DNA of 50,265 bases from a virus (lineage: Duplodnaviria; Caudoviricetes). The notes under the pieces were generated by a model. It searched no databases, was not told where the DNA came from, and saw only the letters and a program-made list of their open reading frames with translations. Of the stretch, positions 10,976-50,265 are shown piece by piece. Both the position numbers and the translations under genes were made by a program. The stretch spans positions 1 through 50,265 of the IMG/VR virus record IMGVR_UViG_3300031673_000073; one strand, given 5' to 3'. Within the stretch, counting starts at the first letter, position 1. Every line of letters starts with the position of its first letter.

Positions 10976-11426
10976 ATGCCTCGCCTTTAATAGTATATTC
11001 TGCCTCATGATCAAACCAGTCCATGATAATTGCCGCATTATTTGTCTCACGTAGTTTCCAAAAACGTATTACATAAATGGCTATCAACCTATCATTTTTT
11101 TCATTATCACTAAGTATAAAACCTACACCTAACAGCGCGTTATATTTTTCCATTTCAACTCTCTGCAAATTACCAAAAGCTGTATCAGCTTTAAAAGTCA
11201 AACCCTTCCGCGTTCTGGCCTTCACTACTTTCATTTCCAAACAATCCGTTGTCCAGTATAAATCTATTGGATTACCTACGCGCACAGTGCTTCCATCGTT
11301 TGCTGTCCCTAATCCATCCCTGGGCTTTACAAATCTCCCGGGCATAGTACCTAGTTGTAAAGCTTCGATAGCCAAGGGATTATTTAGATCCCGCATTACT
11401 TTTCTATAAAGATCCCGCTCGTTCAT
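10962..11426 (-). CDS. PD-(D/E)XK nuclease, Holliday-junction-resolvase-like
   Basis: MNERDL N-terminus, PID...LEMK, downstream Q helix. Confidence 0.6.
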   Translation of the reverse strand: MNERDLYRKVMRDLNNPLAIEALQLGTMPGRFVKPRDGLGTANDGSTVRVGNPIDLYWTTDCLEMKVVKARTRKGLTFKADTAFGNLQRVEMEKYNALLGVGFILSDNEKNDRLIAIYVIRFWKLRETNNAAIIMDWFDHEAEYTIKGEAYGKI

Positions 11427-15504: not shown

Positions 15505-15561
15505 AATATACAACGTCAAGAATACAATGTCAAGTCTTTTTTTACTTTTTTTTACTTTTTT
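15505..15561 (-). promoter_or_regulatory. sigma70-type promoter with A-tract UP element
   Basis: TTGACA(15533-15528), 17 nt, TATATT(15510-15505); 34 nt identical to 7881-7914. Confidence 0.9.
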
Positions 15562-16622
15562 ATTCCAAAGAATCTCCTGGGATTTAGGCAGGCTATCATG
15601 GCGAACATCTCTTCCCCGATAAACGAGATAAGCTTTAAGCAAAACTCCCGTTCGGATATTTTCTGAGTTGCCATGTAGAAATCTGTTCCGAATAGAACAT
15701 TATTTCTTATCGTTTTGTCTTTAAGCATATTCAAGAGCACGGGATGGAATCTATCGTTAGCCATAGTAAAAGAAGTATCCGTATAGATATTATTAGGATA
15801 CAATCTGATGAGTTTTTTTATATCATTGAACCAAGTATCTTTATTTGGTCCAAATGATGTATTTAAATATTTATCGACCTCACTCCCGCCCCCCATATGA
15901 GCTAGGCATATTTTGAGTTTCGGGAAACGATTTACAACTCCGATATATTGAGATGGTTCCCCAAAATAATTCCATAGGTTTTTATATCTTTTTCTCGATT
16001 GGTCTACCTGATTAAGAAGTTTTTTAATATTACCTCTCGCGTGTACCGCTCCATCAATACCGCAATGGGATATAATGGGAAGATTGTTTTCCTCAGCGAA
16101 CTTATAAATAGGATCCAACCTTCTATCCCCGGGATAATATCCTAACGCGGGATATAATTTAATACCGGCGAACCCGGCGCCGGCCGCCCACTTAACTATA
16201 TTTAATATATTATCCCTTCTCGGATCTACGCAAACCATCGGCATAATCTTATTACCATATATCTCTTTAAGGTGCGCTAGTTCCGCAAGCTGTCCTTCAA
16301 GATATTTCTGCTTAACTTTACCAGCGCCCATATACGCCATGTCCATAGAGCATGTACCAAAATTAAAATTATCGGGATAGTATCCAATCATCTCATCGAA
16401 TATTGCTTTCTGGTTCGGGTAATTTCCTGTATTAAGAAATGTCATAAACCTATCAAATATATCATTATTGCTCCACCAAGTAACTTTATGAAGTACTCGG
16501 GCGAGACCTCTCGAAAACTTGGGCTTACTAAGCCATTTAGTTATAAACGGAATAAATCCATCTGGAACGGATTCACTAGTTTCGATATGAGTGTGACAAT
16601 TAATATATTCATCTTTGTTCAT
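15552..16622 (-). CDS. Metal-dependent amidohydrolase (Amidohydro_2 TIM barrel)
   Basis: INCHTH, CVDPRR, GIKLYP, HCG, LAHMGG, YTDTS, LFGTDF motifs. Confidence 0.9.
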   Translation of the reverse strand: MNKDEYINCHTHIETSESVPDGFIPFITKWLSKPKFSRGLARVLHKVTWWSNNDIFDRFMTFLNTGNYPNQKAIFDEMIGYYPDNFNFGTCSMDMAYMGAGKVKQKYLEGQLAELAHLKEIYGNKIMPMVCVDPRRDNILNIVKWAAGAGFAGIKLYPALGYYPGDRRLDPIYKFAEENNLPIISHCGIDGAVHARGNIKKLLNQVDQSRKRYKNLWNYFGEPSQYIGVVNRFPKLKICLAHMGGGSEVDKYLNTSFGPNKDTWFNDIKKLIRLYPNNIYTDTSFTMANDRFHPVLLNMLKDKTIRNNVLFGTDFYMATQKISEREFCLKLISFIGEEMFAMIACLNPRRFFGIKK

Positions 16623-16877: not shown

Positions 16878-17488
16878 GTTTTCCCAAACCTTTCCTCTGT
16901 TTTTTTATCTACCATTCTCTCGAGATCACCAACCGAATATGTATCATATATCCCGGCAATGCCCCCATGATTCCCAGACCAATAATATTCACGCCAGTTA
17001 TTTTTTCCGCTCTTTATCGGACTCCACTTATAACAAAGGAACGCTATAAACGGATACTTCATACTATACCATTTCTCCTGCGTCCCCTTATCCATAGCGA
17101 AACGTTTCTGGTTAAGGGCTATAAGATATGCGGCCCAATAAGCTTGACTAAAATATGGGTGACGTTTTTCTATCGCCGCATTCCTTCCCTGTATACCCAT
17201 CTCCATATTCCGACGTCCCATCTCGAGCAAACGAATTACGAGCCAGAGTTTATAATCAACGATATACTCATCACATGCCATGCGGCCAGCTTCTCTAAAT
17301 GTTGTAGGAATTATCGATGGAGTAGATATAGGCCCCGGGGGATCTAGAACAACATTTATTATCTTTGGCTCGGCAATAACTTTAGTTCCGAACCAGATAC
17401 CGGCCATAACGGCTAAAGCCGCTACGGCCGGTAAAGCATATGTTGTTCTCAATAATATTACAACTTTTGCGATTGTAGCTATTTTCAT
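16871..17488 (-). CDS. N-terminally membrane-anchored protein
   Basis: Hydrophobic ALPAVAALAVMAGIWFG, Pro-rich linker, helical domain. Confidence 0.6.
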   Translation of the reverse strand: MKIATIAKVVILLRTTYALPAVAALAVMAGIWFGTKVIAEPKIINVVLDPPGPISTPSIIPTTFREAGRMACDEYIVDYKLWLVIRLLEMGRRNMEMGIQGRNAAIEKRHPYFSQAYWAAYLIALNQKRFAMDKGTQEKWYSMKYPFIAFLCYKWSPIKSGKNNWREYYWSGNHGGIAGIYDTYSVGDLERMVDKKTEERFGKTW

Positions 17489-17934
17489 TTATTATCAAGT
17501 TTTCTCGCTACACTAAGATTTAATCTCGCCTTTTCTATTCGCGCCTTAGCGTCACCATCGGAAGCATTACTGTTAATCTCGATACTCTTCTCGAACATAC
17601 TAATAGCCAGACCGAATTCTCCAAGAGATATAAATACAACTCCGAGATTATTATAAGACCAATATTGGAGCGGATCGTTCTCTATCGCGCTCTCATAAAG
17701 TTTTCTGGCTAAATTAATATTACCAGATTTATACTCCTGATAACCCTGCGCGTTTAGAGCGTTCGCTTTTCCTACGCTTGTAGTGGCGAGCTTAACAGCC
17801 GATGAATAATTTTTTGATGCAAAGGCTATCTCGAACTCCTTGCTCTCCTTCTGGTATTCTCCGGCTATACCATAAGGCCCTTGGCATCCCGACACTACCG
17901 CTACAACAAGCATCGCCATAAATAACTTTCGCAT
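17485..17934 (-). CDS. TPR-repeat lipoprotein
   Basis: MRKLFMAMLVVAVVSG-C lipobox; ALNAQG...Y..AI..DP...SYNNLG...FEKSIEIN TPRs. Confidence 0.85.
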   Translation of the reverse strand: MRKLFMAMLVVAVVSGCQGPYGIAGEYQKESKEFEIAFASKNYSSAVKLATTSVGKANALNAQGYQEYKSGNINLARKLYESAIENDPLQYWSYNNLGVVFISLGEFGLAISMFEKSIEINSNASDGDAKARIEKARLNLSVARKLDNK

Positions 17935-19597: not shown

Positions 19598-20830
19598 TTA
19601 AAGATTAATCCACGCAAACAAATCCGGAACCGCATTTACACCTTCTGCTGTACCATCATCATCTATGGTTATTAATGTTGGATATTGAAACCCTCTCACT
19701 TCCAATCCTCTTACTAATTGTATTCCGTCTATAAATGCTACAATTGATGATGTTTTTACGGTACGAGTATCTGGAAATATCCTTAGTTCTAAAGCCGTTA
19801 CATCATTATCAACATAAGCTTGTAGGACTAGACGTATCCAATCCTTTTCGTTTGCAATGGCTTCCACGAAAGTTGATACCGCCGGAGCCGCTCCGGTCTG
19901 TATTAATTCCATAGCTGCTGTTATATTACCTGCGGCTGATAAGCGTATAAATGCAGTTATTGTTATCTGTTTATTATGATATGTAGTCGGATTATCTATA
20001 ACCTGGCTCACATAATGGAGATTACTACTCCCGTCATTTGTTATCTCCAAAGACGCATTTCCATATTTTACAGGTGTAGTTACGGTAGTTATTGTCGCAT
20101 TAGTACCAGACCAATCAGAAGTATCGTTTAAAAAAGCTGGATTCTTAATAGTATTAATTTGTGTCGCTTCTGGTCTTTCGCCTCTCTCTAAATATAAAAA
20201 TCTATCGTTTTTTAAAATTATAAAGCTATCTGTTCCATTACTGAAATCTCTGATTGGATTAGGAACATTCGGGTTCCCGCCACTTGGTTCTAGCCAAAGC
20301 TTAGCTATTTCCAAAGTGTTTGATGGTATTTCTTCAGGTATAGGATTTACCGCCGGGAGACCAGTAGTTACGGCTACACTTCCATCGGCAGATATGTGAA
20401 CTACATCTATACGTGGATTAGTAATTCCCAGCGCAAAATCGGATGGATCTACTACCTGGGCCCCCGTCTCTCTGAATAGTGATCCATTAACAAATCCCTG
20501 TCCAGTTCCAACTTCTACTTTATCATCAGGAGTACCGCTCGCAATAGTTTTACATTCATTTGAAACTCCTGCGAATATTCCATAATAAACATCCTTCTGG
20601 CTATCTACTATTCTGGTTTTAAGATCTGTAGCCTCTTCCCGGGCAGCTATAACTTCCGCGCTAGAAGAAGCTGGGGGGGATCCACCTGATTCAAGCGCCT
20701 CTATAGAAGCGGCATGATCGGCCGTAGCTTGAGTAACTTTTTCAAAATTATCCCTAAGTGGATAACTATCTATATCATCCTGAAATATTATCTCATTAAG
20801 TTGATTAGAACCCTCTAATCTCGTCGCCAT
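19598..20830 (-). CDS. Tail fiber/receptor-binding protein with a CBM4/9-like domain
   Basis: AEVIAAR motif, NPRIDVV baseplate-type segment, N.IKNPAF...W...IDGIQL carbohydrate-binding pattern. Confidence 0.65.
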   Translation of the reverse strand: MATRLEGSNQLNEIIFQDDIDSYPLRDNFEKVTQATADHAASIEALESGGSPPASSSAEVIAAREEATDLKTRIVDSQKDVYYGIFAGVSNECKTIASGTPDDKVEVGTGQGFVNGSLFRETGAQVVDPSDFALGITNPRIDVVHISADGSVAVTTGLPAVNPIPEEIPSNTLEIAKLWLEPSGGNPNVPNPIRDFSNGTDSFIILKNDRFLYLERGERPEATQINTIKNPAFLNDTSDWSGTNATITTVTTPVKYGNASLEITNDGSSNLHYVSQVIDNPTTYHNKQITITAFIRLSAAGNITAAMELIQTGAAPAVSTFVEAIANEKDWIRLVLQAYVDNDVTALELRIFPDTRTVKTSSIVAFIDGIQLVRGLEVRGFQYPTLITIDDDGTAEGVNAVPDLFAWINL

Positions 20831-20839
20831 ATTCCCTCC

Positions 20840-22339
20840 CTATAGCTTTGTTATAACAGCTCCACGAAAATTAGTATTACCCTGACTAGGATCTCCCACA
20901 TCTGCGGTTTCATCATATATTCTTCCAATGTCATATGTAAATCCAATATCATATTTTTGGTCAATCTCAATTAGACCAGCATATTCTGTAACAACTCTTG
21001 ATCTTAATGTCGCTTGTTCAGATAAATATGAATGATTTAATCTCGCCATATGATACAACCTTTTATCATTAGAATATTTTTCCACGACTCTTACAAGATC
21101 GTTAATCTCACCTAGGAGCCATCCTGTACCTATATTAAACTCCGCTCTAACTCTTTCAGAAAATAGATTTAATCCAATAGTATCTGCCAGTGATTTAGCT
21201 TCATTCGAATTTTGAATAAATCTATTAATAATATCCCGAGATTTTCCTCTAGCCAATCTTATATTTTCTCCAGATGCCGCTTCGCCTGCCACCCCCGCGA
21301 ACTTATCTCCGAATACGCTCGCCGACCAATTTCCGGTCGCAGCCGGAAATCTTCTATCAAAAGTTACCGAAGTAATCGTGCGCGCAGTCTCGATTATTTC
21401 TAAAGTATCAGCGACTCCAGAGACCCAATTGACTCTCACGGCTGGCCCATCTGTATAATTATGAACATATGGTAAAACCGTCTCGTTTCCAGATGGAGTT
21501 CCTTGCGGCTTTCCGGCAGTTACGGCGGGATTCGCGGCATTAAATATAGTTATTCTCCGTAGAAGTTTAAGTGTATCATCTGTTCTTCGATATGGAGCGG
21601 ATATATGATTTATCCAATGAAATACAAAATCTGCATCGAGCACATCTATCTTAGCAATCTCCATAGTAATTACATCAGATCTATTAACTAATCTATAATT
21701 ATCTTCAAGTTGTAAATATTCTATTACTTCACTAAGAAGTTCGGAAGCAGATTCATTATCTATTACAGGTGTATTTGTAAGCGTTGTAGTAGTTACCGGA
21801 ATATTATATTCCGATGGCTTTACACCTATACGTTCAAGGATTTTTATAATATATTGATCGGCAGATATAGAAACTTCTGTCGCAAGCGATATAGAATTGT
21901 CAGCTATTATACCGAATAGATCTCGTGCTGTAATATTTACGATCGCTCCGGGGCTTACATCAAATGAAGGATCATCTGCTATAAATGTTCCCTGGGGAAA
22001 AAACTCATCAACGCCATCTACTTTGTGTCCTAGTTCGGCTATAAATCTTCTACCCCTCTTAACTACACCATCATATATTCCGCCAAAACCAGTCGTAAAC
22101 TGTTTTGATTCATTACTAAGTTCAATAGTTAATATTCCAGCTGGAGGAATTAGAAGAAATATACCTTCGCGTTCATCATCTCGGTCATATGTTATGCTAA
22201 AAGATAAAACTTGTTCGTTTATCGTCTGTTCAACATCATTATCATCAATATATTTTAATCTAGCTACGGGGTGACTAACTGGCCCTCGTAGTATATTAAA
22301 ATATTTTTCTAATACCGCTGTTGAACTTGCATCTTTCAT
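20840..22339 (-). CDS. Tail tip/hub protein
   Basis: Second gene after tape measure; FFPQGTF...ITARD pattern. Confidence 0.65.
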   Translation of the reverse strand: MKDASSTAVLEKYFNILRGPVSHPVARLKYIDDNDVEQTINEQVLSFSITYDRDDEREGIFLLIPPAGILTIELSNESKQFTTGFGGIYDGVVKRGRRFIAELGHKVDGVDEFFPQGTFIADDPSFDVSPGAIVNITARDLFGIIADNSISLATEVSISADQYIIKILERIGVKPSEYNIPVTTTTLTNTPVIDNESASELLSEVIEYLQLEDNYRLVNRSDVITMEIAKIDVLDADFVFHWINHISAPYRRTDDTLKLLRRITIFNAANPAVTAGKPQGTPSGNETVLPYVHNYTDGPAVRVNWVSGVADTLEIIETARTITSVTFDRRFPAATGNWSASVFGDKFAGVAGEAASGENIRLARGKSRDIINRFIQNSNEAKSLADTIGLNLFSERVRAEFNIGTGWLLGEINDLVRVVEKYSNDKRLYHMARLNHSYLSEQATLRSRVVTEYAGLIEIDQKYDIGFTYDIGRIYDETADVGDPSQGNTNFRGAVITKL

Positions 22340-27813: not shown

Positions 27814-28121
27814 TAAACTATTACCTCTTTATGATGTATAACCCCATTACCACCTGGCACACTTTCAACTCTTATTACATCTTCCTCCCTGCCATCCGGG
27901 AGAACTACTCGATCATTAGAAGTTATCACTACACTTGGCTGTAGAAATATTCTCGCTATAGTTTTAGTAATCTTTCCGGATACATCAAACATCTCCTCAT
28001 CAATATATTCTATCCTCGCTGAGTAATTTACCACAGATCCGAATCCCTTATCTCCATATGCGCTATTACTACTTCGCGTCTTAATACCTACCGTCTGATT
28101 TATAAGAGAATCAAATGACAT
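27813..28121 (-). CDS. Head closure protein
   Basis: Size and position; ends HHKEVIV. Confidence 0.7.
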   Translation of the reverse strand: MSFDSLINQTVGIKTRSSNSAYGDKGFGSVVNYSARIEYIDEEMFDVSGKITKTIARIFLQPSVVITSNDRVVLPDGREEDVIRVESVPGGNGVIHHKEVIV

Positions 28122-28732
28122 TATGTACCTCGCATAGATGATTCTATATCTCGACGTTTATAATCTTCAATCATAGTCCAAATATTTTTTGGAATATATG
28201 TACTCTCCTTAACTGCGTTGGGATCTTTTCTGTATTGATAATTACCAATCTTCTCAGAAATAATCTCCGATGATACGACCGTTGGATTATTAACGATATA
28301 TCCAACCATTAATATTGCCGCAAAGTTTACTTCGGCCGGTATCGTTGTATACCCTGCCGTATATATTATCTCATAATTTCTGTCTCCCCGAGTAAAAAGT
28401 GGTAAAGATCGATATATCCTCGGAGTATCATCTGTAACACTTTTAATTTTTATAATACCTTCAATCAAATACGTGGCTATGGATTCAAGATCTACCGATA
28501 TATCATCCTCCTTGATGCTGGTAATAGAGATAATCGGATAATTATAAAGTCGGATACTCCTCGAATCAGTTCCGTCCCGAACTTCGGTATAAACCGTTTC
28601 GCGAAGATCGCGATCAAGCGCTCTATTAAATATAGCTGTAACCCTCGGGATATCAGCAGTTATAGCGACATCTTTGCTCGCATCAAACCCGAAGTGAGCC
28701 TTGACTTCTGCTATCGCACAATAGTCGGACAT
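28121..28732 (-). CDS. Head-tail connector (gp6-like)
   Basis: Y....EVK, YP..SITSI, YTAGY..IP..V..A, SEKIGNY. Confidence 0.85.
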   Translation of the reverse strand: MSDYCAIAEVKAHFGFDASKDVAITADIPRVTAIFNRALDRDLRETVYTEVRDGTDSRSIRLYNYPIISITSIKEDDISVDLESIATYLIEGIIKIKSVTDDTPRIYRSLPLFTRGDRNYEIIYTAGYTTIPAEVNFAAILMVGYIVNNPTVVSSEIISEKIGNYQYRKDPNAVKESTYIPKNIWTMIEDYKRRDIESSMRGT

Positions 28733-29241
28733 TACACTCCCTTCTTACCTTTCTTATTCCCTGGCTTTTTATCACCAGTATCATTATCTTTTGGATCTTT
28801 TGGGATTTCCTTTTTTCCCGTTCCGGATAATTCACCCTTAATTAATTTCCATCCTCTCCGAATTAGATCTCGAACATTGGATTCTTTTCTTACATAAGCA
28901 ATACGTTTTACTACCGGCGCAACTTCAGTATAAAAATATTCAGTCCAGTTAGTACCAGGTTCCTTTTCTGGAGCCTCGATCTGATATGGATATTCTAAAT
29001 AGTCCATATTTTTCTCGGGAATTTTCTTCTTCTTCGGCTCTACTTTTTTTAATGATTCTGGATTGGTAGATTTATCCACTGGTTTAATACCAGGATCATT
29101 AGTTGATGTTTCATTCGGAACACGATTAACATTCTTTTTATCTCCCGTACTTTTCACAGCACTATCTTCAGTTTTCTCTTTCGGAATGGGTTTGCTAGTG
29201 TTTTCTGTGTTCTCGATTTTAGTCGTTTTGTCTACCATCAT
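28732..29241 (-). CDS. Lys/Pro-rich hypothetical protein
   Basis: GAGGAGG RBS; TAATG coupling to the connector gene. Confidence 0.6.
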   Translation of the reverse strand: MMVDKTTKIENTENTSKPIPKEKTEDSAVKSTGDKKNVNRVPNETSTNDPGIKPVDKSTNPESLKKVEPKKKKIPEKNMDYLEYPYQIEAPEKEPGTNWTEYFYTEVAPVVKRIAYVRKESNVRDLIRRGWKLIKGELSGTGKKEIPKDPKDNDTGDKKPGNKKGKKGV

Positions 29242-29252
29242 ATCCTCCTCTT

Positions 29253-29699
29253 TTATTTACCTTCGGTTGTAATAAATACCGCCGCGCGGTCTTTTATCGT
29301 AGTTAAATCCGGAAATTCAATCTCTTCTATTAATTCTCTATCTGGTGTAATAAGCATCAATGTATCATCGGCATTAATTCTTTTGACGATCTCAGCGACG
29401 TTCTCTATTGGTACTACCATTATTATTAAACACGAAGTAGCCGGAGATCCGTCTTTGTCTGAATCATATGTGACGGTATCGCTACGTCGCAACATTCTAA
29501 TTTGATAAGATATCTTTGGTATCAGTCTTCCAGGTTTGATATCCACAGGAGCGCGGATTATGATTATAACATCATCCGCTTGCACAACTGATTTAGTGAG
29601 ATCTACCATTTCAGTATCATTTAACTTTACCACCGTTCCAGCTGTTACTGAATATGATATAGCGGTAAACAATAATATCAGCAATAGTAATTTACGCAT
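29253..29699 (-). CDS. Exported protein (signal peptide)
   Basis: MRKLLLLILLFTAISYSVTA|G. Confidence 0.75.
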   Translation of the reverse strand: MRKLLLLILLFTAISYSVTAGTVVKLNDTEMVDLTKSVVQADDVIIIIRAPVDIKPGRLIPKISYQIRMLRRSDTVTYDSDKDGSPATSCLIIMVVPIENVAEIVKRINADDTLMLITPDRELIEEIEFPDLTTIKDRAAVFITTEGK

Positions 29700-29711
29700 G
29701 TTCCCTCCACG

Positions 29712-30734
29712 TTAAAAACCAATTCCCATCATCATCAACGATCCGCGTGGCAACGATATTATCGACGGATATTCATAAGCGCCCATATCAAAATTACTGT
29801 TTTGTGGTCTCGTAGTTCCTTCGATGTCCGGTGTTATTCCGGTGGTATCACCAGCATCTATGTTCGCTTGGTCGCCGGCCATTTGCCATCCAGTAGGTAT
29901 TGCCGTGGATATTCCGGTGAATGTGATCGATGTAGCAAACAAATTTCCCGTTCCCCATCCACCAGTGTCAGTCTGTTGTTCGAAACAATTATAAGTATAA
30001 TTAGCTTTTGTTGGAGTACCACCAATATCAGTAGTATTGTCTTGATATAAATTATGTTTTATAATATCAGCCGCCCCGCCCGTTCCGGTTCCGACACTGC
30101 AATTCCTTATCGTATTACAGTTTATATTGAGCGTTGAACCAGCTGCTCCTAAAAAAGATATCCCAGCATCAGATATGTCATGTATATAATTCGTGCGTAT
30201 CGAATATGTCGAACCTGCATTTGAATTCGTGATAACTATTCCCGACTTTCCAGTTCCCAAAATATTGCAATTCTTGAACGTGAAATTGATAGCGCCAGAA
30301 CCAAGAATATTCGTGGTGTTGTTATTAGCTTTAGTGCAATCCAATGTCACATTGTCGATTACAACGACAACATTATTCGTTCCGGCATATCCGATTGGAT
30401 GAGTTGCCGCGTTCGTGAATGTAAAATCTGTATTATCGCCTTGCCCGAGTATAGTGATCGGTCCAACGCCGGCATTACCAAAACCAACGGCTCTGACTAT
30501 TGGAGTATTCCCTAGTTTATTCCGTAGAGTTCTCTCGCTACTAGGTAACCACGTTTCTGCATAAGTCCTGTCATCCTGGATTTCTAATATGTCGCCAGCC
30601 AATGAAACTGCTTCGGCAGGGGCAATAGCAGTATATCCACAACCACTTAGGCATATTGTTCTCAATGTAGGAGCACCGAACATTGATACACCGATCAACA
30701 TCGATAATAGGAACGCATAGATATTTTTAAACAT
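29712..30734 (-). CDS. Exported right-handed beta-helix (pectin-lyase-like) protein
   Basis: Signal MFKNIYAFLLSMLIGVSMFG|A; N/I/G-rich coils; IDAG...PDIEG..RPQ...DMGAYE. Confidence 0.75.
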   Translation of the reverse strand: MFKNIYAFLLSMLIGVSMFGAPTLRTICLSGCGYTAIAPAEAVSLAGDILEIQDDRTYAETWLPSSERTLRNKLGNTPIVRAVGFGNAGVGPITILGQGDNTDFTFTNAATHPIGYAGTNNVVVVIDNVTLDCTKANNNTTNILGSGAINFTFKNCNILGTGKSGIVITNSNAGSTYSIRTNYIHDISDAGISFLGAAGSTLNINCNTIRNCSVGTGTGGAADIIKHNLYQDNTTDIGGTPTKANYTYNCFEQQTDTGGWGTGNLFATSITFTGISTAIPTGWQMAGDQANIDAGDTTGITPDIEGTTRPQNSNFDMGAYEYPSIISLPRGSLMMMGIGF

Positions 30735-31621
30735 CAGTAGTCTCCTATCGTAGGATATGAAGTCCCGAGCGAACTCCTGAATCTAATGGAATCGATCCAG
30801 CAATTACATTCAAGCGTTCCATCTGATTTTGCTCCAACATAACTGACTTGATTTGTCGGTTGTGTCGTTGCCGCGCTTGTTAATCTTTCTGTACCATCGA
30901 CCAATAATTTAGTTCCATATCCAACACCGCCCATTTCAAGCTCGAGGTGATACCATGTGCTTTCATTTATTCCAGTCCACCAGCCAGGAGCGCCGTTATT
31001 AAATGACAGCTGGCTCCAAGCCGCAAGCAAATTATTGCTTCCGGATTCCCATATGCGTTTAAAGTTTCCGTTCCAAGCAATAGCTCCACGATTGAACCAC
31101 ACCTCAACAACGTATATTGTTTCTGTTATAGCAGATGATGAATAAATATAATCACCACCACCTTCTAATATAGGTCCAAAGGCATATGATCCTTCTTTGA
31201 CAGTAACCGCATCGAATGGCACAGTTCCGTTTTCAGTCCACGCATACACTCCTTTAAGATCTGAAAAATCATTTTCCGCCAACATCATTGCCAGCGTTCC
31301 TTGCCTGACTACCTTTGTAGGAGTATTAATATCATCAACTATGTAATCGTAAGTATCTGAATTGATAGAATTGGCAATCCAATCGGTGAGCGTAATTGAT
31401 ACCGCTATATCAAGAACGGCATTAGAACCTTCGCAAGTAACCGCTCCCGTTTCAGCGCTTGACCATGTAACCCCGGCATCCCTCGCGACCACCACTGTAG
31501 ATATACAATGATCGCACGTTCCTGCATCAATGATATAACAGAGATCTACTTCCGAAGTGGCAGCCATAGCCGCACCTGCGACCATGACCGCCATTAAAGA
31601 TGACCATATTTTTTTAATCAT
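30734..31621 (-). CDS. Exported protein with C-terminal LamG/ConA-like domain
   Basis: Signal MIKKIWSSLMAVMVAGAAMA|A; VEVWF, WYHL, LLVDG, IDSIRF. Confidence 0.75.
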   Translation of the reverse strand: MIKKIWSSLMAVMVAGAAMAATSEVDLCYIIDAGTCDHCISTVVVARDAGVTWSSAETGAVTCEGSNAVLDIAVSITLTDWIANSINSDTYDYIVDDINTPTKVVRQGTLAMMLAENDFSDLKGVYAWTENGTVPFDAVTVKEGSYAFGPILEGGGDYIYSSSAITETIYVVEVWFNRGAIAWNGNFKRIWESGSNNLLAAWSQLSFNNGAPGWWTGINESTWYHLELEMGGVGYGTKLLVDGTERLTSAATTQPTNQVSYVGAKSDGTLECNCWIDSIRFRSSLGTSYPTIGDY

Positions 31622-31629
31622 ATTTCTCC

Positions 31630-33432
31630 TCAGTCAACCAAGATATATGTGAAACTTCCATCACATGATACCGCTCCGCTCAACTCCATATTCAATAAAG
31701 TATTCGTTCCGGTTTCAAACCATCCTAGCGGATTGTAAGGTAGAACGAATCCCTCGTTTGCTATGAGTTCCATCTGACCTGTCAATGCAGTTCCCCCTGC
31801 TCCGCTCTCGAACCTAACAGTTACCGCGCCAGCAGCGACCATGAATAATGATAGCACTCTGATCTTTTTCCCGGCAACAGCAGTCTTTAATGTATTATCA
31901 CCCGCTCCTGCATAATCTATGATCGCTCTCGCTGAAGCAATAACAGTAGTTCCCTGCATCAATCCGTCCGTACTAACCAGCGCGGCAACGGCATCAGTTG
32001 TAGCGGCCAATGCCGGGCTTGATTCTACATCTACCTGTACTGCCCCGCCAGCATCCACTTTAACGGTTTGTATATTACCACCGGTAGTTCCGGAAATAAG
32101 AATCGGATCGCCAGCCGTTCCAATTGCCGCACCGTCCGCACCGGAACCCTGAACAATTGCGGCATCAGATCCCGTTGCATTATCTATTATAGTAGTAACC
32201 GGAGCTTGATCACTCGCTATCACTACTGGCAAAGATGCTGCCGATGCAGCTGCACCCTGGGAAGGTATCTTTGTGTCAAGCGATGTTGTGTCACCTGCTA
32301 TCACTCCCGTATCTGTATCTATTGTCGCAAGAGTTGCTTGAGTAGCAAGAGCGACACCACCATCCCCCGATACTTCGAGATCACCCGTTCCGGAAAGGCT
32401 TGACATATTAGTTCCATCAGTCAACCGGACAAGAATTCCATCATATACTGCGCCATTATCTATCATCATGCTTTCAGATCCATCGGTGAGACCAACGGAT
32501 TGTCCCGCTGCTATACTGACAGCTTCCGTGAATCCAATATCACCATCAATTGTTAAACTATTCCCTCCATCCTGAATATTAACAGCGGATCCCGCCCCGG
32601 CATTATTGATAGTTACATCTCCGATATCAGTTCCGCTAACAAGCTTCCCATCTATACTTGATAAACTTCCATTACCAGTCGTTTGATTAGCTGATGTAGC
32701 TGCACCAGTAGGTAGAGATACAGTTCCGGAAACATTCGTTATGTTCCATGTTCCACTTTGAGTTGCAGCGACCGATCCATCAACTGTAAGCGATCCTCCG
32801 TTATCGTCAACGCTGAGCAACCCTGTTGAATCAGTTGGCAACGTAACCAATATTGCAGATGCTTCCAATCCTCCGCCGACTGATATCTTTCCATCAATCG
32901 AAGTCGTATCTCCCGATATTACTCCAAGAGCTGTATTTGTAACTGTAACACCTGCATCGATCGCATCTAGGGAAGCGTTCCCAACTGTAACGCCAGCATC
33001 GATCGCATTCAATGATGTGTTAGACACTGTAACTCCTGCGTCAATAGCATCAAGAGAAGTATTTGCGATAACCTGATTAGCAGATGTTGCTGTTATAGTG
33101 TTGAGTTGAGCAGATATAACTCCTAACCATCCGTTGCCAGTATTCGATCTCCAATCAAGTTGAGCCAGAGTTTCTTGTTCTGCCGGATTGATAGTATTAC
33201 CTAGTGCATCAAGTATATATGATGCAGTTGGTAATGTATTACCTCCAGCCGAAATTATAAGATATCCTTCGTCGGTCATGCGCTGATTTCGCATTTCACC
33301 GCTGGCATTTATGCCTCCGTTACCAACATTGCGATTTGCGTCTCTCTTTAATATTTCCTCGGTCGCCTGTAAACCATTAGTCGTAAACAAGACCAGGCCG
33401 GCGACCAACACGCCTATAATTAATTTTCTCAT
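31630..33432 (-). CDS. Exported fiber-like G/T/A/S/D-rich protein with 14-aa repeats
   Basis: Signal MRKLIIGVLVAGLVLFTTNGLQA|T; N(T/A)SL(D/N)AIDAGVTV x3; globular C-terminal domain. Confidence 0.75.
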   Translation of the reverse strand: MRKLIIGVLVAGLVLFTTNGLQATEEILKRDANRNVGNGGINASGEMRNQRMTDEGYLIISAGGNTLPTASYILDALGNTINPAEQETLAQLDWRSNTGNGWLGVISAQLNTITATSANQVIANTSLDAIDAGVTVSNTSLNAIDAGVTVGNASLDAIDAGVTVTNTALGVISGDTTSIDGKISVGGGLEASAILVTLPTDSTGLLSVDDNGGSLTVDGSVAATQSGTWNITNVSGTVSLPTGAATSANQTTGNGSLSSIDGKLVSGTDIGDVTINNAGAGSAVNIQDGGNSLTIDGDIGFTEAVSIAAGQSVGLTDGSESMMIDNGAVYDGILVRLTDGTNMSSLSGTGDLEVSGDGGVALATQATLATIDTDTGVIAGDTTSLDTKIPSQGAAASAASLPVVIASDQAPVTTIIDNATGSDAAIVQGSGADGAAIGTAGDPILISGTTGGNIQTVKVDAGGAVQVDVESSPALAATTDAVAALVSTDGLMQGTTVIASARAIIDYAGAGDNTLKTAVAGKKIRVLSLFMVAAGAVTVRFESGAGGTALTGQMELIANEGFVLPYNPLGWFETGTNTLLNMELSGAVSCDGSFTYILVD

Positions 33433-33466
33433 TTTATACTTCCTCCTTAATGTTGGTTGCCGGCCT

Positions 33467-33489
33467 GGGGGACGGATTATCCGTCCCCC
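33467..33489. other. Perfect GC-rich intergenic hairpin
   Basis: GGGGGACGGAT-T-ATCCGTCCCCC; no U-tract on the minus strand. Confidence 0.7.
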
Positions 33490-33498
33490 TTAACCAGA

Positions 33499-34563
33499 TT
33501 AGTCCCTTATATCACATTCGATATCTGCCGTCTGAGTTGCACTTGATTTTAACCGGGCCCATCCATTAAAGCCACTATAGGCCGGAACTATAAAAATTTC
33601 GGGCGTTGTCGCCGTAGCCGAAGTTATCGTAACGGCTGAATCAATACTCCTTATTAGCGCGGGATTAAGCGCCTCTTTGGCCTGTGTGTAATGCGTTTCT
33701 ATTTCTGTAAGCGTAGGTGAATCACCTAAGACCATCTCGACACTATCGATCTTTCCGGCGAAAGTAGTCGTAGCTGATTTCGCAGCGCCCACGTTAAGCG
33801 ATACTGCATTACTAAGCGTTAGAGCGGCATTAGTTACCGTAGCTGTTGCGGCCAATACACCATCAACATTAATGGTAAGAGCCGTTCCCCTACGGACGAA
33901 CCATGCTAAATGCCATACGCTGTCATCGTACTCGGTGGTAGTCGTAGCCACATCGGTAGTCGCTCCGCTATCATCGCTGATACTAAATACCAGCGTACCC
34001 GTAGCACTTAGATAAGCTTCATACCCGGTCTCATTTCTGCTTGTACCATCTTTCTTATTAAAGAGATGGTCGATATCGGCACTCGTTGTATGATTAAACC
34101 ATACACCTAATGCAAAGTCTCCCGTCCCTACATCAAAATAAGCATTATCTGGTACAGTCAACCAGGTATTAGCTACGGCCGTCAGATCGAACCCGAGCCC
34201 ACCTACACCAGCGGTTGTCGACATAACGGTAGTGGTATTCGATGCGAAATCCGCACCGTTTCCGTGATTCCCTACAACCGTTGATACGGCCGCTTCCGAG
34301 CAATATAGATGAACACTATATGCCGAATCGGAAACCCCTGGTAATATTGGCATCGCCCCAGATCCGAGATTTGCACGAGTATATTCTACCGTAATGGCAG
34401 AACTCACCCTAGTAGGAACTCGAACCGAGAACGCATTACCAGATACGTATGCGGAACTCGATACCGTAGGATCCTTGCTAACATCGAACGTAACGATATC
34501 GGCAAGGACTATGCTTGGTAACGCAAATAGAAGCGCTACCAAAAAACAAGTCACTTTTCTCAT
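33499..34563 (-). CDS. Exported LamG/ConA-like lectin-domain protein
   Basis: Signal MRKVTCFLVALLFALPSIVLA|D; GDFALGVWF, DDSVWHL, NVDG, FAGKID. Confidence 0.8.
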   Translation of the reverse strand: MRKVTCFLVALLFALPSIVLADIVTFDVSKDPTVSSSAYVSGNAFSVRVPTRVSSAITVEYTRANLGSGAMPILPGVSDSAYSVHLYCSEAAVSTVVGNHGNGADFASNTTTVMSTTAGVGGLGFDLTAVANTWLTVPDNAYFDVGTGDFALGVWFNHTTSADIDHLFNKKDGTSRNETGYEAYLSATGTLVFSISDDSGATTDVATTTTEYDDSVWHLAWFVRRGTALTINVDGVLAATATVTNAALTLSNAVSLNVGAAKSATTTFAGKIDSVEMVLGDSPTLTEIETHYTQAKEALNPALIRSIDSAVTITSATATTPEIFIVPAYSGFNGWARLKSSATQTADIECDIRD

Positions 34564-34584
34564 CTTACTATCCTCCTTTTTTTA

Positions 34585-34614
34585 GGCGGGGGGAGGTTTA
34601 TCCTCCCCACCACC
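34585..34614 (-). other. Hairpin downstream of the major capsid gene
   Basis: GGTGG-T-GGGGAGG-ATAAA-CCTCCCC-CCGCC on the minus strand, followed by an A-run rather than a U-run. Confidence 0.55.
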
Positions 34615-34639
34615 GATTAACTATACCAGTTTCGTAAAA

Positions 34640-35563
34640 TTACGCCGCTGGGATTATCCTTTTGATCTGCGAAGTCTTTACAGGGTTCTTATAAACGAGG
34701 GTCAGATCCTCAAATATTTCGAACGCATCGAATTGCGATGAGGTTTTAGCGAGATTAACAAACGTCAACGGAGTCAATTCACCAATAAAAACCTCGGTAG
34801 TATCGAGAATATAAATCCTCGATTCGTTTCCGCCACCTTCTGTTATTGAAATAGAATTGGATGTATAGATCGGGATACCATCATAAGTTTTCAAGCGGAA
34901 ACCGCCATTAACTTCAATGATATCATTAAAGCGCTGTTTGCTCTGATTCAGGGCATTAAGTTCCCGAGCAGTACGTTTTGATGTAATGATCATATCAGCG
35001 TTGCCTTTCACAAGGTCAATCGCCTCATCCATCGCCGCGAGAGTAAGTTCGGTTCCTAACAGATCGAGTGTCTGTCCGGCCTGCGCATCAAGTAGGATTT
35101 TAAGACCATCGTATTCTTTCGGGGATCCGGTTGCATCGCCATTTATTAAAGCATCCTCCTCGAGATCCTTAATAACCTGCATACCGTTTTCGATTTCATC
35201 CATCAAAAGATCTCCGAAAGTTCGACCAACCGCCTGGGCCTTCCTCGTTACCTGGCCCTGAAAAGCAGGGGTCTTGTACGGGAAAGCAGTCCGAGTATAC
35301 GTTCCGTTAGAATTGTTAAGCGTTTCTGTATCATTAACAAACGCTCCTGCTCCACGATCCGTTCTGCGAGTAACGTTCCAGTTCTCGCCGCTCCCACCTT
35401 TACGCATTAGATTCTGACGTAGCGGGTTACGGACTTCGATAAGATCGGCTATGACGACATCGATCTCTTCTACGGTAAGAACACCACTAACCGCAGCCTG
35501 ATCAAGCGCTTTAGCGACCTCGTCCTGATTTATCCGTGTATTCCAAATATCGTTTCTCCACAT
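34640..35563 (-). CDS. Major capsid protein (HK97 fold)
   Basis: Follows protease; NPLR, EEDALING...EYDGL, YDGIPI, LAKT motifs; GGAGGTGA RBS. Confidence 0.9.
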   Translation of the reverse strand: MWRNDIWNTRINQDEVAKALDQAAVSGVLTVEEIDVVIADLIEVRNPLRQNLMRKGGSGENWNVTRRTDRGAGAFVNDTETLNNSNGTYTRTAFPYKTPAFQGQVTRKAQAVGRTFGDLLMDEIENGMQVIKDLEEDALINGDATGSPKEYDGLKILLDAQAGQTLDLLGTELTLAAMDEAIDLVKGNADMIITSKRTARELNALNQSKQRFNDIIEVNGGFRLKTYDGIPIYTSNSISITEGGGNESRIYILDTTEVFIGELTPLTFVNLAKTSSQFDAFEIFEDLTLVYKNPVKTSQIKRIIPAA

Positions 35564-35592
35564 TCTGAATCACCTCCGTTTCGTTAATAATA

Positions 35593-36690
35593 TTACCAAA
35601 GTTTCTCACCCTGACGTCCCATCGTCTTAGCGATAAGATATACCAATCTATTCCCGGCGGGTATATCAGCCGCTTTAAGAACAGGAGCCTCGGTTTCCAC
35701 CTGGCTCGTTTCACCTTTCGGTTTCGCGAGTGCCTTAGCAACCTCGGCCGCTACGCGCGCCTCAAACATCTCCGGAGTAATAGCCTGAACCGTAACCGAT
35801 TCATTCGTCTTTGCGGATTCCGTGATAGTCTTAACCGCATCAACGACCGCCGGCTTTTTACCAGATAGAATATCTATCTGTGCCGTAAGGGCCTTAAGCG
35901 TATCACCTATAACTGATAATGCTTTACCACTTTCGTCCGGTTTCACTTCCGCAGGAGTTACCGCAGGATCTTCGACCGGAGCTACTGTTGAATCTACTAC
36001 CGGAGGAGTTCCCTCTGTCTTTACCGGCGGAGTTTCAACTGGCTGTCCACCTTCAGGCGCTCCCTCTTCGTTCTTGTTCACTACTTTTGACATTTTTTCC
36101 TTACCTCCCTCCATGATTGAATGATTTGCTATTGACTTACTGATCGCCGAGGCAAAGGACTTCTCTGCCTCAACTCTTTCGAAGCCCGTTACTCTCGCGG
36201 CGCGATTAGCGGCGATAGAAACGAGCGACACTTCCACGAGATCTATCTCATGGATTATAAATATCATTTCGTTTTTTGATTCATCCATCTTTCTCTCGAC
36301 CTTTAACGCTCTACCCCGGATCGAGAACTTAGATATAATACCTTCTTCGATCTTTCTCCGAATAGTGGGTTCAGTCTTAGATATACTAATTTTTACTTTA
36401 AGCCCCTTACCCTCGATGGCTTCCGCTTCTTCGATCTTCCCGATAGGCTTATCAGGATCATGGTTAAAAAGAGCGGTCGAGTTTTTCAATAAGCCTTTCG
36501 CCGCCTTCTTTAAAGCGTTAAATGTTATTACATCTCCCTGCTCGTCGAGATCCGATGTAGATGCAAACCCTTCTACAAAAAAATCATCTTCATCGATTTC
36601 CCCAAGCATCTGCTTTTTAATATCGAACTGAACATCTATCGGAAACACCCCCTCTAATACACCTATTTCTTCTACTACTGCCATCGACAT
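35593..36690 (-). CDS. HK97-type prohead protease with C-terminal scaffold-like region
   Basis: VEGFAST..LD.QGD, FNHD...PIG, FSI.G, LVEVSLVSIAAN. Confidence 0.92.
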   Translation of the reverse strand: MSMAVVEEIGVLEGVFPIDVQFDIKKQMLGEIDEDDFFVEGFASTSDLDEQGDVITFNALKKAAKGLLKNSTALFNHDPDKPIGKIEEAEAIEGKGLKVKISISKTEPTIRRKIEEGIISKFSIRGRALKVERKMDESKNEMIFIIHEIDLVEVSLVSIAANRAARVTGFERVEAEKSFASAISKSIANHSIMEGGKEKMSKVVNKNEEGAPEGGQPVETPPVKTEGTPPVVDSTVAPVEDPAVTPAEVKPDESGKALSVIGDTLKALTAQIDILSGKKPAVVDAVKTITESAKTNESVTVQAITPEMFEARVAAEVAKALAKPKGETSQVETEAPVLKAADIPAGNRLVYLIAKTMGRQGEKLW

Positions 36691-39554: not shown

Positions 39555-40850
39555 CTATCCAGCAAAGCTAACGGCTGGTTCAACGTATTCGCCTTCTTCG
39601 TCTCCGATGGCCGTTGCCATTACACAGTCATCGTGATATCCGCTCGGGGCCCCGTACTTCACATTCCCTCTGCTTGATGTCATATATTCATACAATTCCA
39701 GTTCGGCTACTAACTCCGGCCAGTCCGGATATAATATTTCTCCATTCTCGACCGCCATTGCCAGCTTTTCTATCATCCTATTCTTGTTTCCACCATCTCG
39801 ACCGCCTGCTACAAACACTCCTTCCACAAATACTCTCGGTAAATCCCGCCGCAAGTTATCTATCAGAGCATCACCTATCGAGTTCTGCTCCGCTTTTACC
39901 TTTGATGGTCTCCAGTTGGTTATCATATTCTTGAGACGATCGAGTTGAATATTGTAATCGACCTTGCTGATCCGGTCATAGGCAACTATCATCCTCGGAG
40001 TTTCTGTTACATCGATAACAACAAAGACCGAAAAGTCTCGGCGCTTCCCCCAATCAACGCTGATTATATAAGTCCGCCCAGGCATCGGATGTTTAAGCGG
40101 CAAGAAGTTTCGTATATTATCCCGGACGTTCCTAAAAACACCTCCTGCATCCGCTATAAACTCCGCCAGTATCTCCTGCCGATAAACCATCTCGTTCATT
40201 CCTGATGTAAGTTCCTCGATAGCTTGAGGTGATAGGGTAGTATTTGCGTGTGTCGGGAATCTCCATGATGCCCACGTCGGATATTGTGGATCTTGCCCTC
40301 GCGTCCAATGCCTGAAGAAAAAGTTCCTACCCTTCGGTGTCGTTAGCCCGACCAGTTTTCCTTCTTTATCTGCCAGCGCCGGCCAGATCGCAGATTCGAA
40401 CGCTGATTCTTTCCACATCGCCATCTCGTCGCAAACGACAAAGTCAAGTCCCTCGCTCCGGAGGTAATCTTCGTTATCCGCTGATCGGCATTCGAGTTCG
40501 CTCCCGTTTTTTAACTTAATATACATATCCGTCTTCGAAAAATCTTCGATGGCCCATTGCGGAACCAGAGGAACTATCTTTTTCCATCCTACCCGGGATA
40601 TTTTATATATCGGGGCGACCCACCAGTTAATACTTCCAGGTTTCATTACCGCCGCCTTATACATTTCCGGGGCCGCGCTCTCGCCCTTGCCTAACCTACG
40701 GCCTCCGCAAACCAGACGAAATCTTGCCTGGCTATCGTGGAAGCCCGGGCCGTCCTTCAAAAATGATCCCGACCGATTATCGTATCCCGATGATCGTGTC
40801 CACTCTAACGGCTTATAAGGTATTACTGTCTTTACTGCTTCGGCTTGCAC
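39555..40850 (-). CDS. terL: Terminase large subunit
   Basis: GGRRLGKG Walker A, VVCDE Walker B, TTPKG, QEILAEF, VDWG, HDDCVMA. Confidence 0.95.
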   Translation of the reverse strand: MQAEAVKTVIPYKPLEWTRSSGYDNRSGSFLKDGPGFHDSQARFRLVCGGRRLGKGESAAPEMYKAAVMKPGSINWWVAPIYKISRVGWKKIVPLVPQWAIEDFSKTDMYIKLKNGSELECRSADNEDYLRSEGLDFVVCDEMAMWKESAFESAIWPALADKEGKLVGLTTPKGRNFFFRHWTRGQDPQYPTWASWRFPTHANTTLSPQAIEELTSGMNEMVYRQEILAEFIADAGGVFRNVRDNIRNFLPLKHPMPGRTYIISVDWGKRRDFSVFVVIDVTETPRMIVAYDRISKVDYNIQLDRLKNMITNWRPSKVKAEQNSIGDALIDNLRRDLPRVFVEGVFVAGGRDGGNKNRMIEKLAMAVENGEILYPDWPELVAELELYEYMTSSRGNVKYGAPSGYHDDCVMATAIGDEEGEYVEPAVSFAG

Positions 40851-50011: not shown

Positions 50012-50265
50012 CTGGTGTCTGGTCTGTCATTATGATTCTCCTTTGAGTTCGTGCTTTAGACATTCTCCACCACTTTGTTGACAAATGTTTTCATCAAAGT
50101 GAGTACAGGTAAAACAAGTCATGCCCTCTGCCTTCCCCGACACCTCCGTGGTGTCTATGCGGTCTATGATTGCCCTTACCTTTTCGGGCTTCCACGTGAA
50201 GATAGTTCCCTCTTCAGTCATAGTGTGCATTAGATTATATAACTCGCTTATTGCCTCTTCCTTGC
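50012..50265. repeat. Terminal direct repeat, right copy
   Basis: 253/254 identical to 1-254. Confidence 0.95.

Follow-up and report, generated by a model that had tools for sequence, protein, structure and literature searches.

A variable cassette of predicted exported lectin- and fiber-like proteins in the head gene module of a tailed phage

We analyzed the whole of IMG/VR virus record IMGVR_UViG_3300031673_000073 (Duplodnaviria; Caudoviricetes), a tailed-phage genome of 50,265 bases that is rated 100% complete and is called the window below. Five consecutive genes, here named A to E, lie on its minus strand at 29253 to 34563, between the gene for the major capsid protein (MCP) and a gene of 169 amino acids (aa) that is followed by the head-tail adaptor gene, and they take up ~10% of the genome. 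All five products carry predicted Sec-type signal peptides, and comparison with a relative indicates that gene content turns over at a locus that is itself conserved, together with its export character. We favor the interpretation that the locus is a variable late-gene cassette of modular glycan-binding proteins, exported by Sec with signals of the signal peptidase I (SPase I) type, which would act on the envelope or matrix of the host late in infection. This interpretation is tentative, and we put its probability at roughly 40%.

Export-type N termini in a five-gene block

The block consists of A (354 aa, 33499 to 34563), B (600 aa, 31630 to 33432), C (295 aa, 30734 to 31621), D (340 aa, 29712 to 30734), and E (148 aa, 29253 to 29699), all on the minus strand. 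An earlier note, made from the letters of this stretch without database searches, had described five co-oriented and tightly spaced signal-peptide genes between the capsid and connector genes, and this description was accurate, with the addition of the one 169-aa gene before the adaptor gene. The distances between genes range from -1 to 76 nucleotides (nt), with 76 nt between the MCP gene and A, 66 between A and B, 8 between B and C, a 1-nt overlap of C and D, 12 nt between D and E, and 11 between E and the next gene. A Shine-Dalgarno-like motif lies upstream of each of the five start ATGs.

Signal peptides were called for minus-strand open reading frames (ORFs) of >=50 aa with a heuristic rule of our own, based on the n-, h-, and c-regions and on the residues at -3 and -1 (the n-h-c rule). 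All five N termini passed, as the earlier note had supposed, each with a Lys/Arg-containing n-region, a hydrophobic h-region of 10 to 15 residues, and small residues at -3 and -1. The predicted cleavage contexts, with the cut at the hyphen, are VLA-D in A, LQA-T in B, AMA-A in C, MFG-A in D, and VTA-G in E. Inspection of the five N termini revealed no lipobox or twin-arginine motif, and the only lipobox in the genome is in a TPR protein at 17485 to 17934. The n-h-c rule flagged 6 of the 105 minus-strand ORFs, namely A to E and this lipobox protein. A simpler hydropathy scan flagged the same lipoprotein and four of the five block proteins, with C, whose h-region is Ala/Gly-rich and weakly hydrophobic, falling just below the threshold. 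For background, we applied the n-h-c rule to 124 other phage and metagenome loci, where 37 of 2059 ORFs (1.8%) were flagged and only two runs of consecutive flagged ORFs occurred. Given the 6 calls among 105 ORFs in this genome and the background of 1.8%, five flagged ORFs in a row are not a chance result.

Identity to homologs was lower in the signal region than in the mature part for A (57% versus 74%), C (9% versus 40%), D (32% versus 62%), and E (39% versus 71%), which is the usual behavior of signal peptides, and the conserved mature sequence begins at the predicted cleavage site in the homologs of all four proteins. Signals were also kept in the homologs themselves, being flagged in six of six homologs of A (five close ones with 57 to 81% identity and one distant LamG match with 26%), in both homologs of D (64% and 61% identity), and in the one homolog of E. 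An alignment of A with its five close homologs has a common cleavage junction, in which Ala is followed by Asp or Glu. Close homologs are scarce, with five for A, two for D, and two full-length ones for C, and they lie on phage-like or short metagenome contigs. The five proteins together contain 1.0% Cys, compared to 0.32% in 15 other structural proteins of the phage, and C and D have six and seven Cys residues, respectively. Pairwise BLAST comparisons of the five with each other and with the other structural proteins gave no shared module beyond low-complexity matches. Together, the signal patterns lead us to infer that all five proteins are exported and cleaved.

The earlier note had seen no separate promoter for the block, in agreement with our finding that promoter-like matches occur at the level of shuffled sequence (24 versus 24.2), as do terminator-like consensus matches. 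Two hairpin regions were found on the minus strand. One, immediately downstream of the MCP stop codon (34585 to 34614; z score, -3.7), is a GC-rich hairpin that lacks a U-run. The other (33395 to 33489; z score, -5.4; 0 of 200 shuffles as stable) likewise lacks a U-run; it comprises a 10-bp hairpin after the stop codon of A and, beyond it, a long-range stem, and the Shine-Dalgarno motif and the ATG of B lie in the loop of this stem. Hairpins occur at both equivalent places in the relative G001, described below (locus L126, ~9935 to 9975 and 11070 to 11100). The hairpins suggest graded expression along a single late transcript, and they may act through attenuation, transcript stabilization, or translational control. 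The GC content of the block and its GC content at third codon positions (GC3) are within the range of the neighboring genes. In tetranucleotide profile the block ranks among the more deviant parts: of 45 windows along the genome, only 4 lie farther from the genome mean.

Domain content of the five proteins

The lectin domains, the beta-helix, and the fiber content that the earlier note had read from the sequence were recovered in A by Pfam, in C and D by the fold of structure models, and in B as repeats and a jellyroll. Several of the structural assignments below come from alignments of few sequences. Protein A has an N-terminal domain behind its signal (~aa 1 to 21), a LamG domain at aa 132 to 276, and a conserved C-terminal region. 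It matched Laminin_G_3 (PF13385) with an E value of 4.3e-14 and 53.3 bits (cutoff, 27.6) and PF02210 with 31 bits (cutoff, 22.9), and its profile matches include the LamG domains of neurexin and pikachurin. A weak match of A to Toxin_R_bind_N reflects a generic concanavalin A (ConA)-like subdomain, and a toxin reading was rejected.

Protein C (signal ending in AMA before ATS) consists of a Cys-rich N-terminal domain and a ConA-like lectin domain at aa ~105 to 290. It had no match in Pfam and none in the PDB by sequence. An AlphaFold2 (AF2) model built from 23 sequences gave a predicted local distance difference test (pLDDT) score of ~90 for aa 105 to 290, and Foldseek matched this model to domain 4 of AbnA (5hon_A; E value, 5.6e-6; target template modeling [TM] score, 0.61) and to trans-sialidase lectin domains. 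The model also matched the lectin-like subdomain of clostridial neurotoxin binding domains, at the level of the fold only; such matches reflect the generic ConA-like subdomain, and a toxin reading of C was rejected as well. An exhaustive search for relatives of C found signals in 7 of 24 matches. Four relatives share the N-terminal domain, of which two were flagged and the other two look signal-like by eye. Among relatives that share only the lectin domain, many are without a signal, and modules are shuffled behind signal peptides.

Protein D has a signal peptide, a right-handed beta-helix with its seven Cys residues, and a choice-of-anchor-Q motif. The choice_anchor_Q match was above the NCBIfam cutoff, and the match to Beta_helix (PF13229) was below the Pfam cutoff (18.1 versus 25.9 bits), although one homolog of D carries a precomputed PF13229 match. 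The Atlas model of D (predicted TM score, 0.81) is a beta-helix with a TM score of 0.79 to a DUF1565/Pel9A-like cluster and of 0.6 to 0.7 to NosD and pectinesterase clusters, and D had no match in the PDB by sequence. Its last 13 residues form a conserved hydrophobic tail (29715 to 29753, minus strand; LP.GS.MMMG.G followed by F or L) that is present in three of three sequences. The tail has eight hydrophobic residues and no basic end, and it matched no known sorting-signal family such as LPXTG, PEP-CTERM, or T9SS, choice_anchor_Q being the only match. This tail, following the choice-of-anchor-Q motif, may be a new short anchor or sorting signal. Protein E has a signal ending in VTA before G and a small domain; it had no family or PDB match, and its Atlas model is of low confidence with only weak ACT/CutA-like neighbors.

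Protein B combines a signal at ~aa 1 to 23 with an N-terminal module conserved in the lineage, fiber-like repeats, and a C-terminal jellyroll domain (aa 465 to 600; 31633 to 32040, minus strand; AF2 pLDDT, 92). A repeat scan located ~3 copies of a 42-nt (14-aa) tandem repeat within the gene (32941 to 33066, minus strand). B has more than 1600 fiber-like homologs. Signals were flagged in 13 of the 119 matches listed and at 0 of 80 viral loci, and most of the listed homologs begin with a conserved N-terminal domain that lacks a signal. What stays constant across the family is the run of central repeats, to which about one-third of the listed matches add the last 130 aa, and the C-terminal domain also occurs in viral loci as a stand-alone, signal-less protein of ~117 aa. 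The best PDB match of the jellyroll by structure is the trimeric cement protein of Helicobacter pylori phage KHP40 (7dou_4; TM scores, 0.48/0.52; 15% identity), with nearly equal scores for Ena pilins, the coat protein of the satellite virus STMV (satellite tobacco mosaic virus), Pam1 capsid chains, and a carbohydrate-binding module (CBM). In BFVD, the domain matches many uncharacterized Caudovirales proteins of 105 to 125 aa, and no PDB match for B was found by sequence.

B is the second gene after the MCP gene, and signal-less members of its family lie one to five genes downstream of PHROG-verified capsid genes in three other loci (L085, L090, and L073). Between phages whose capsid proteins show no relation in phmmer searches, the C-terminal domain keeps 50 to 70% identity, and it is nearly unrecognizable in G001, where the MCP is 65% identical. 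Among GenBank phages, the domain matched one uncultured record and no cultured phage, and the N-terminal 464 aa of B had no match. In a genome set of 185,579 species, the C-terminal domain was found on nine contigs of metagenome-assembled genomes (MAGs) only. The B-family jellyroll on MAG contigs L084 to L092 is 40 to 63% identical to that of B, and the MAGs are labeled Pseudomonadales, Dongia, Gammaproteobacteria, Alphaproteobacteria, Anaerolineae/Chloroflexi, Pseudanabaena, Pyrinomonadaceae, and a Methanosarcinales archaeon, a wide spread for a well-conserved domain.

The locus in relatives and the surrounding genome

The relative G001 is a complete IMG/VR genome of 49,997 bases with direct terminal repeats. 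It was found through the alignment of A only; in IMG/VR, single-protein patterns for the MCP, C, and D and the alignment of C gave no close relative. Its gene order is the same as in the window, and the proteins are 68% (large terminase subunit, TerL), 48% (portal), 65% (MCP), 45% (adaptor), 45% (tape measure), and 62% and 48% (tail-tip proteins) identical. Between the MCP gene and the homolog of the 169-aa gene, G001 has four genes: a homolog of A with 57% identity, a B-like gene of 297 aa, and two unrelated genes of 222 and 484 aa. The B-like gene is read from an internal ATG with a Shine-Dalgarno motif after a hairpin; its first 61 aa are 43% identical to the N terminus of B, and its C terminus has diverged. 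Three of these four proteins were flagged, and the 222-aa protein has a hydrophobic core with a neutral n-region. About 250 aa of the signal-bearing 484-aa protein (L126:12691-14145) are repetitive and rich in Thr and Pro. The metagenome proteins P0138, P0142, and P0153 carry the N-terminal domain of this protein fused to C-type lectin domains, an instance of module shuffling. Comparison with the whole G001 genome found no C, D, E, or amidohydrolase. Given that G001 keeps the locus and shares only A and part of B, this is a cassette of variable content rather than a recent insertion. The earlier note had named a recent host-derived insertion absent from relatives and virions as one outcome that would overturn its reading, and we rejected such an origin because the relative keeps a block of genes with hydrophobic N termini at this locus and the GC and GC3 values are ordinary.

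The genes C, D, and E also occur in another setting. On a 3.4-kb metagenome contig (L082), homologs of C (90% identical over the last 136 aa), D (61%), and E (67%) are found together; D and E were flagged, the signal of E having diverged, and E overlaps the start of a 357-aa Amidohydro_2 gene (1879-2952). The window encodes an Amidohydro_2 protein without a signal peptide (15552 to 16622, minus strand; PF04909; E value, 1.3e-21) that is 57% identical to L082:1879-2952, and its gene lies 13 kb downstream of C, D, and E, after the lysis genes. C, D, E, and the amidohydrolase are together in the window and in L082 and are all absent from G001, which is a weak hint of a functional link. The position of C, D, and E beside the amidohydrolase gene in L082 means that they are not tied to the place between capsid and adaptor genes, and this comparison indicates that the three form a mobile module. 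The earlier note had interpreted the block as either an exported decoration or fiber complex that docks on capsids only at lysis or a late-expressed cell-surface adhesin or receptor-masking apparatus. The export signals, the late co-oriented block, and the lectin, beta-helix, and fiber content behind that view stood up to analysis, and the idea of one fixed apparatus did not, since the presence of C, D, and E beside the amidohydrolase gene in L082 and their absence from G001 make the block a mosaic of modules.

Flagged genes were also found near head genes in other phages that are unrelated to this one. L094 is a fragment, 36% complete, of an unrelated phage that encodes, in order, a terminase, a portal (phrog_156), a scaffold-like protein, a presumed capsid protein, and a 108-aa protein. 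The presumed capsid gene was not confirmed by PHROG. Three consecutive flagged genes (390, 373, and 661 aa; L094:8695-12973) come after the 108-aa gene, and the middle one shares the repeats of B (E value, 5e-8). In L090, a flagged 161-aa gene (L090:10337-10822) with a weak Phage_depo_C match lies directly after a stand-alone jellyroll gene, and two consecutive flagged genes were seen in L045 (L045:2793-4564).

All long ORFs of the window and every gene assigned are on the minus strand; the plus strand has short overlapping ORFs only. The genes run from the terminase (39555 to 40850) through the portal, a 217-aa gene, the prohead protease/scaffold, and the MCP (34640 to 35563; PF17236, SU10_MCP, E value of 2e-9; phrog_212, E value of 5e-18) to the five-gene block. 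After the block come the gene for the Lys/Glu-rich 169-aa protein (28732 to 29241), which has no signal peptide and has a homolog at the same place in G001, the head-tail adaptor (28121 to 28732; phrog_442, E value of 5e-24), the tail tube, the tape measure, the tail-tip genes, and the lysis region with a glucosaminidase-type endolysin (lysis genes at 16.6 to 18.9 kb). This is the virion plan of what is, judged by its genes, a cytoplasmically assembled siphovirus with an HK97-type head, portal, terminase, tape measure, and tail tube. The usual candidates for tip and receptor-binding proteins are present in the tail module at 20840 to 22339 and 19598 to 20830, and both are conserved in G001. 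The latter protein has weak matches to the "head spike fiber" family of gene transfer agents (NF048003; 31.7 bits; cutoff, 36) and to DUF4815. The lipobox TPR gene adjoins the endolysin gene, and its counterpart in G001 (~2138 to 2572) has an SPase I-type signal without a lipobox. A clear spanin pair was not recognized among the lysis genes, and no tRNA, integrase, resolvase, or reverse transcriptase was found in the 50,265-base genome. We rejected a diversity-generating retroelement target on the absence of a reverse transcriptase. The MCP had only distant matches among GenBank phages, none above 37% identity. The ends of the record carry a direct repeat (1 to 254 versus 50012 to 50265; 253 of 254 bases identical), and the record is classed as "linear, no end repeats"; the repeat would be terminal redundancy or an overlap left by assembly, in a genome that is probably complete and has a unique length of ~50,011 bp. 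DNA nearly identical to positions 28000 to 36000 (54 to 100% of sampled words) was detected in three soil-metagenome DNA runs from three studies, and the record may derive from one of these runs.

Possible roles of the cassette

If the locus is a late cassette of exported glycan-binding proteins, the five preproteins would be made late in the lytic cycle from the structural operon, as the gene order suggests. They would then be threaded through SecYEG and cleaved, which is what the n-h-c signals kept in the homologs point to, and would fold outside the cytoplasm, where disulfides could form in the Cys-rich C and D. The lectins A and C, the beta-helix D, and the fiber B would bind or alter polysaccharides of the dying host's envelope or matrix, and E may be a helper protein. 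As an effect, receptors would be masked or stripped, or the matrix would be loosened, and progeny would be neither lost on debris nor trapped. For this last step the analogy is with enzymes that destroy receptors and with proteins that mask them, such as T5 Llp. We propose that gene content turns over between relatives because the targets are variable surface glycans.

Several observations lead us to favor this interpretation. The domain repertoire resembles that of bacterial exoproteins, with lectins, a beta-helix, an anchor motif with a hydrophobic tail, a Thr/Pro linker, and Cys residues; the modules shuffle behind signal peptides; C, D, and E move independently of the head genes; and the tail already has the usual receptor-binding candidates. 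Bacterial secreted and surface proteins share with the block the signal peptide, LamG/ConA lectin domains, beta-helix, choice-of-anchor-Q motif, Thr/Pro linkers, and Cys richness; the block proteins differ from them in being encoded by a virus, in having few close homologs, on phage-like or short contigs, and in a D tail that matches no sorting signal. Phage envelope proteins that mask receptors or exclude superinfecting phages are known, namely T5 Llp, phi80 Cor, TP-J34 Ltp, and lambda Lom and Bor. Like the block genes, these are phage encoded with an N-terminal Sec-type signal, and they act at the host envelope and not in the virion. They are, however, the products of single small genes, mostly lipoproteins or outer membrane proteins expressed early or from a prophage, whereas here five large proteins with SPase I-type signals and no lipobox are encoded in the head module of a phage without an integrase.

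Other points weigh against an action on the host envelope. Export is itself an interpretation of a heuristic signal pattern, and the block lies in the head module, where decoration and head-fiber genes usually lie. The B family is otherwise without signals (0 of 80 viral loci flagged and 106 of 119 database matches unflagged) and is found a few genes after verified capsid genes in L085, L090, and L073. The stand-alone cytoplasmic form of the B jellyroll and its best match to a cement protein argue for a virion role of B. For the five proteins, the analysis identified neither enzymatic sites nor ligands. In a diderm host, a Sec signal alone leads to the periplasm only, and receptor masking is usually an early or lysogenic function, not a late one.

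The alternative that fares best takes up this evidence for B. The proteins could be virion parts that mature outside the cytoplasm, gaining disulfides and perhaps glycosylation in the periplasm, and that dock onto finished capsids once holin and endolysin have joined the two compartments. The cement-like jellyroll would attach B to the capsid, the other proteins would bind either by way of B or by direct contact, and lectin-tipped head fibers would result. We regard this as possible yet doubtful. The block follows the MCP gene directly in the head module and is kept at the same locus in G001, and L094 has three signal-bearing fiber-like genes after its presumed capsid gene. Jellyroll cement proteins are known from KHP40 (7dou), cyanophage Pam1 (7eel), and Bordetella phage BPP-1, and head fibers or decoration proteins include phi29 gp8.5, T4 Hoc, and lambda gpD. 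B resembles these in its gene position near the capsid gene and in the jellyroll of its last 130 aa, for which KHP40 cement is the best PDB match and Pam1 capsid chains also match, and its signal-less homologs, both stand-alone and fused to fibers, are found near verified capsid genes. As would be expected of an anchor, the C-terminal domain is the part that stays constant in the family, and decoration proteins such as lambda gpD, T4 Hoc and Soc, and phage L Dec bind finished capsids in vitro. Against this, the cement and decoration proteins known so far are made without a signal peptide and attach within the cytoplasm, whereas B bears a signal. The fold match is modest (TM score, ~0.5), with sequence similarity to no solved structure, and jellyrolls are generic, given that Ena pilins, STMV coat, and CBMs score similarly. 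The C-terminal domain also does not track the capsid protein, being 50 to 70% identical across unrelated MCPs and diverged in G001; A, C, D, and E have no jellyroll domain; and C, D, and E lie away from an adaptor gene in L082. Virion proteins with Sec signals that are assembled outside the cytoplasm are known from the coats of filamentous phages (pIII and pVIII) and from membrane-containing phages (PMC4823517). Those particles are assembled at or through a membrane, unlike the HK97-type tailed siphovirus plan seen here, and no tailed phage is known to import exported proteins into its virion, none having been found in a literature search at the abstract level. On this view, part of the virion would be built outside the cytoplasm in no fewer than two lineages, one comprising this phage and G001 and the other L094; such a two-compartment assembly would be unknown for Caudoviricetes, and we consider it a tentative proposition.

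A further alternative is that the N termini are not cleaved export signals and that the proteins are cytoplasmic or membrane tethered and join a normal virion assembly, with the hydrophobic helix serving as a membrane-inserting fiber tip or tether. The head-module position, the lack of a net positive n-region before the hydrophobic segment of the G001 222-aa protein, and the weakly hydrophobic, Ala/Gly-rich h-region of C would fit this view. It is improbable, given that all five N termini have the full arrangement of Lys/Arg n-region, h-region, and small -3 and -1 residues, that mature conservation starts at the predicted cleavage site in the homologs of A, C, D, and E, and that the pattern is typical of export signals and rare in other phage ORFs.

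It is likewise unlikely that the proteins are accessory lysis or exit factors that degrade an outer polysaccharide layer, sheath, or capsule from within, a sub-case of the favored interpretation in which D would be the enzyme. The beta-helix fold of D is common to pectate lyases and pectinesterases, D co-occurs with the amidohydrolase, and Sec export ahead of lysis is established for some late phage proteins, namely signal-peptide and signal-arrest-release (SAR) endolysins and the spanins Rz/Rz1 (PMC7143992, PMC8541568, PMC6139136). Exported endolysins and spanins are encoded in the lysis cassette and act on the peptidoglycan or outer membrane, whereas the block lies 10 kb from the endolysin and the other lysis genes at 16.6 to 18.9 kb. 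Domain scans found no muralytic or membrane-spanning lysis domain in the five proteins, no catalytic motif was identified in any of them, and G001 lacks D yet keeps the locus.

Least probable is a moron-type lysogenic-conversion cargo in the manner of lambda lom and bor, expressed from the prophage to the benefit of the host; signal-bearing envelope proteins in late operons are known as morons, hairpins flank A, and the tetranucleotide profile is deviant, but we rejected this reading because promoter-like sites are at shuffle level and the genome rated complete has no integrase or resolvase, and in addition the hairpins lack U-runs, every gene judged real is on one strand, GC and GC3 are like those of the neighbors, and homologs are rare and confined to phage-like or short metagenome contigs, with the B domain on only nine MAG contigs in the 185,579-species set.

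The assembly of tailed-phage particles is regarded as an entirely cytoplasmic process, and most known exported phage proteins are lysis or exclusion factors; T5 Llp-type exclusion proteins and the coats of filamentous phages are among the known examples. Phage-encoded exported accessory proteins as such are familiar; what is apparently new is a multigene cassette of predicted exported lectin and fiber proteins in the head module. The earlier note knew of no characterized system with this layout, and our literature search, at the level of abstracts, also found no description of such a cassette in a tailed phage.

In summary, ~10% of the genome of a seemingly virulent phage is given to a turnover-prone cassette of predicted exported glycan-binding proteins, which a relative retains and for which an unrelated phage has a parallel. 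Were the proteins to join the virion, they would break the one-compartment rule of tailed-phage assembly and would offer a natural route to the display of disulfide-bonded, periplasm-folded proteins on tailed-phage capsids. If, as we favor, they act on the envelope, they would make up a class of factors that serve soil phages late in infection, in exit or in receptor masking, and the locus would be a marker for the arms race over surface glycans.

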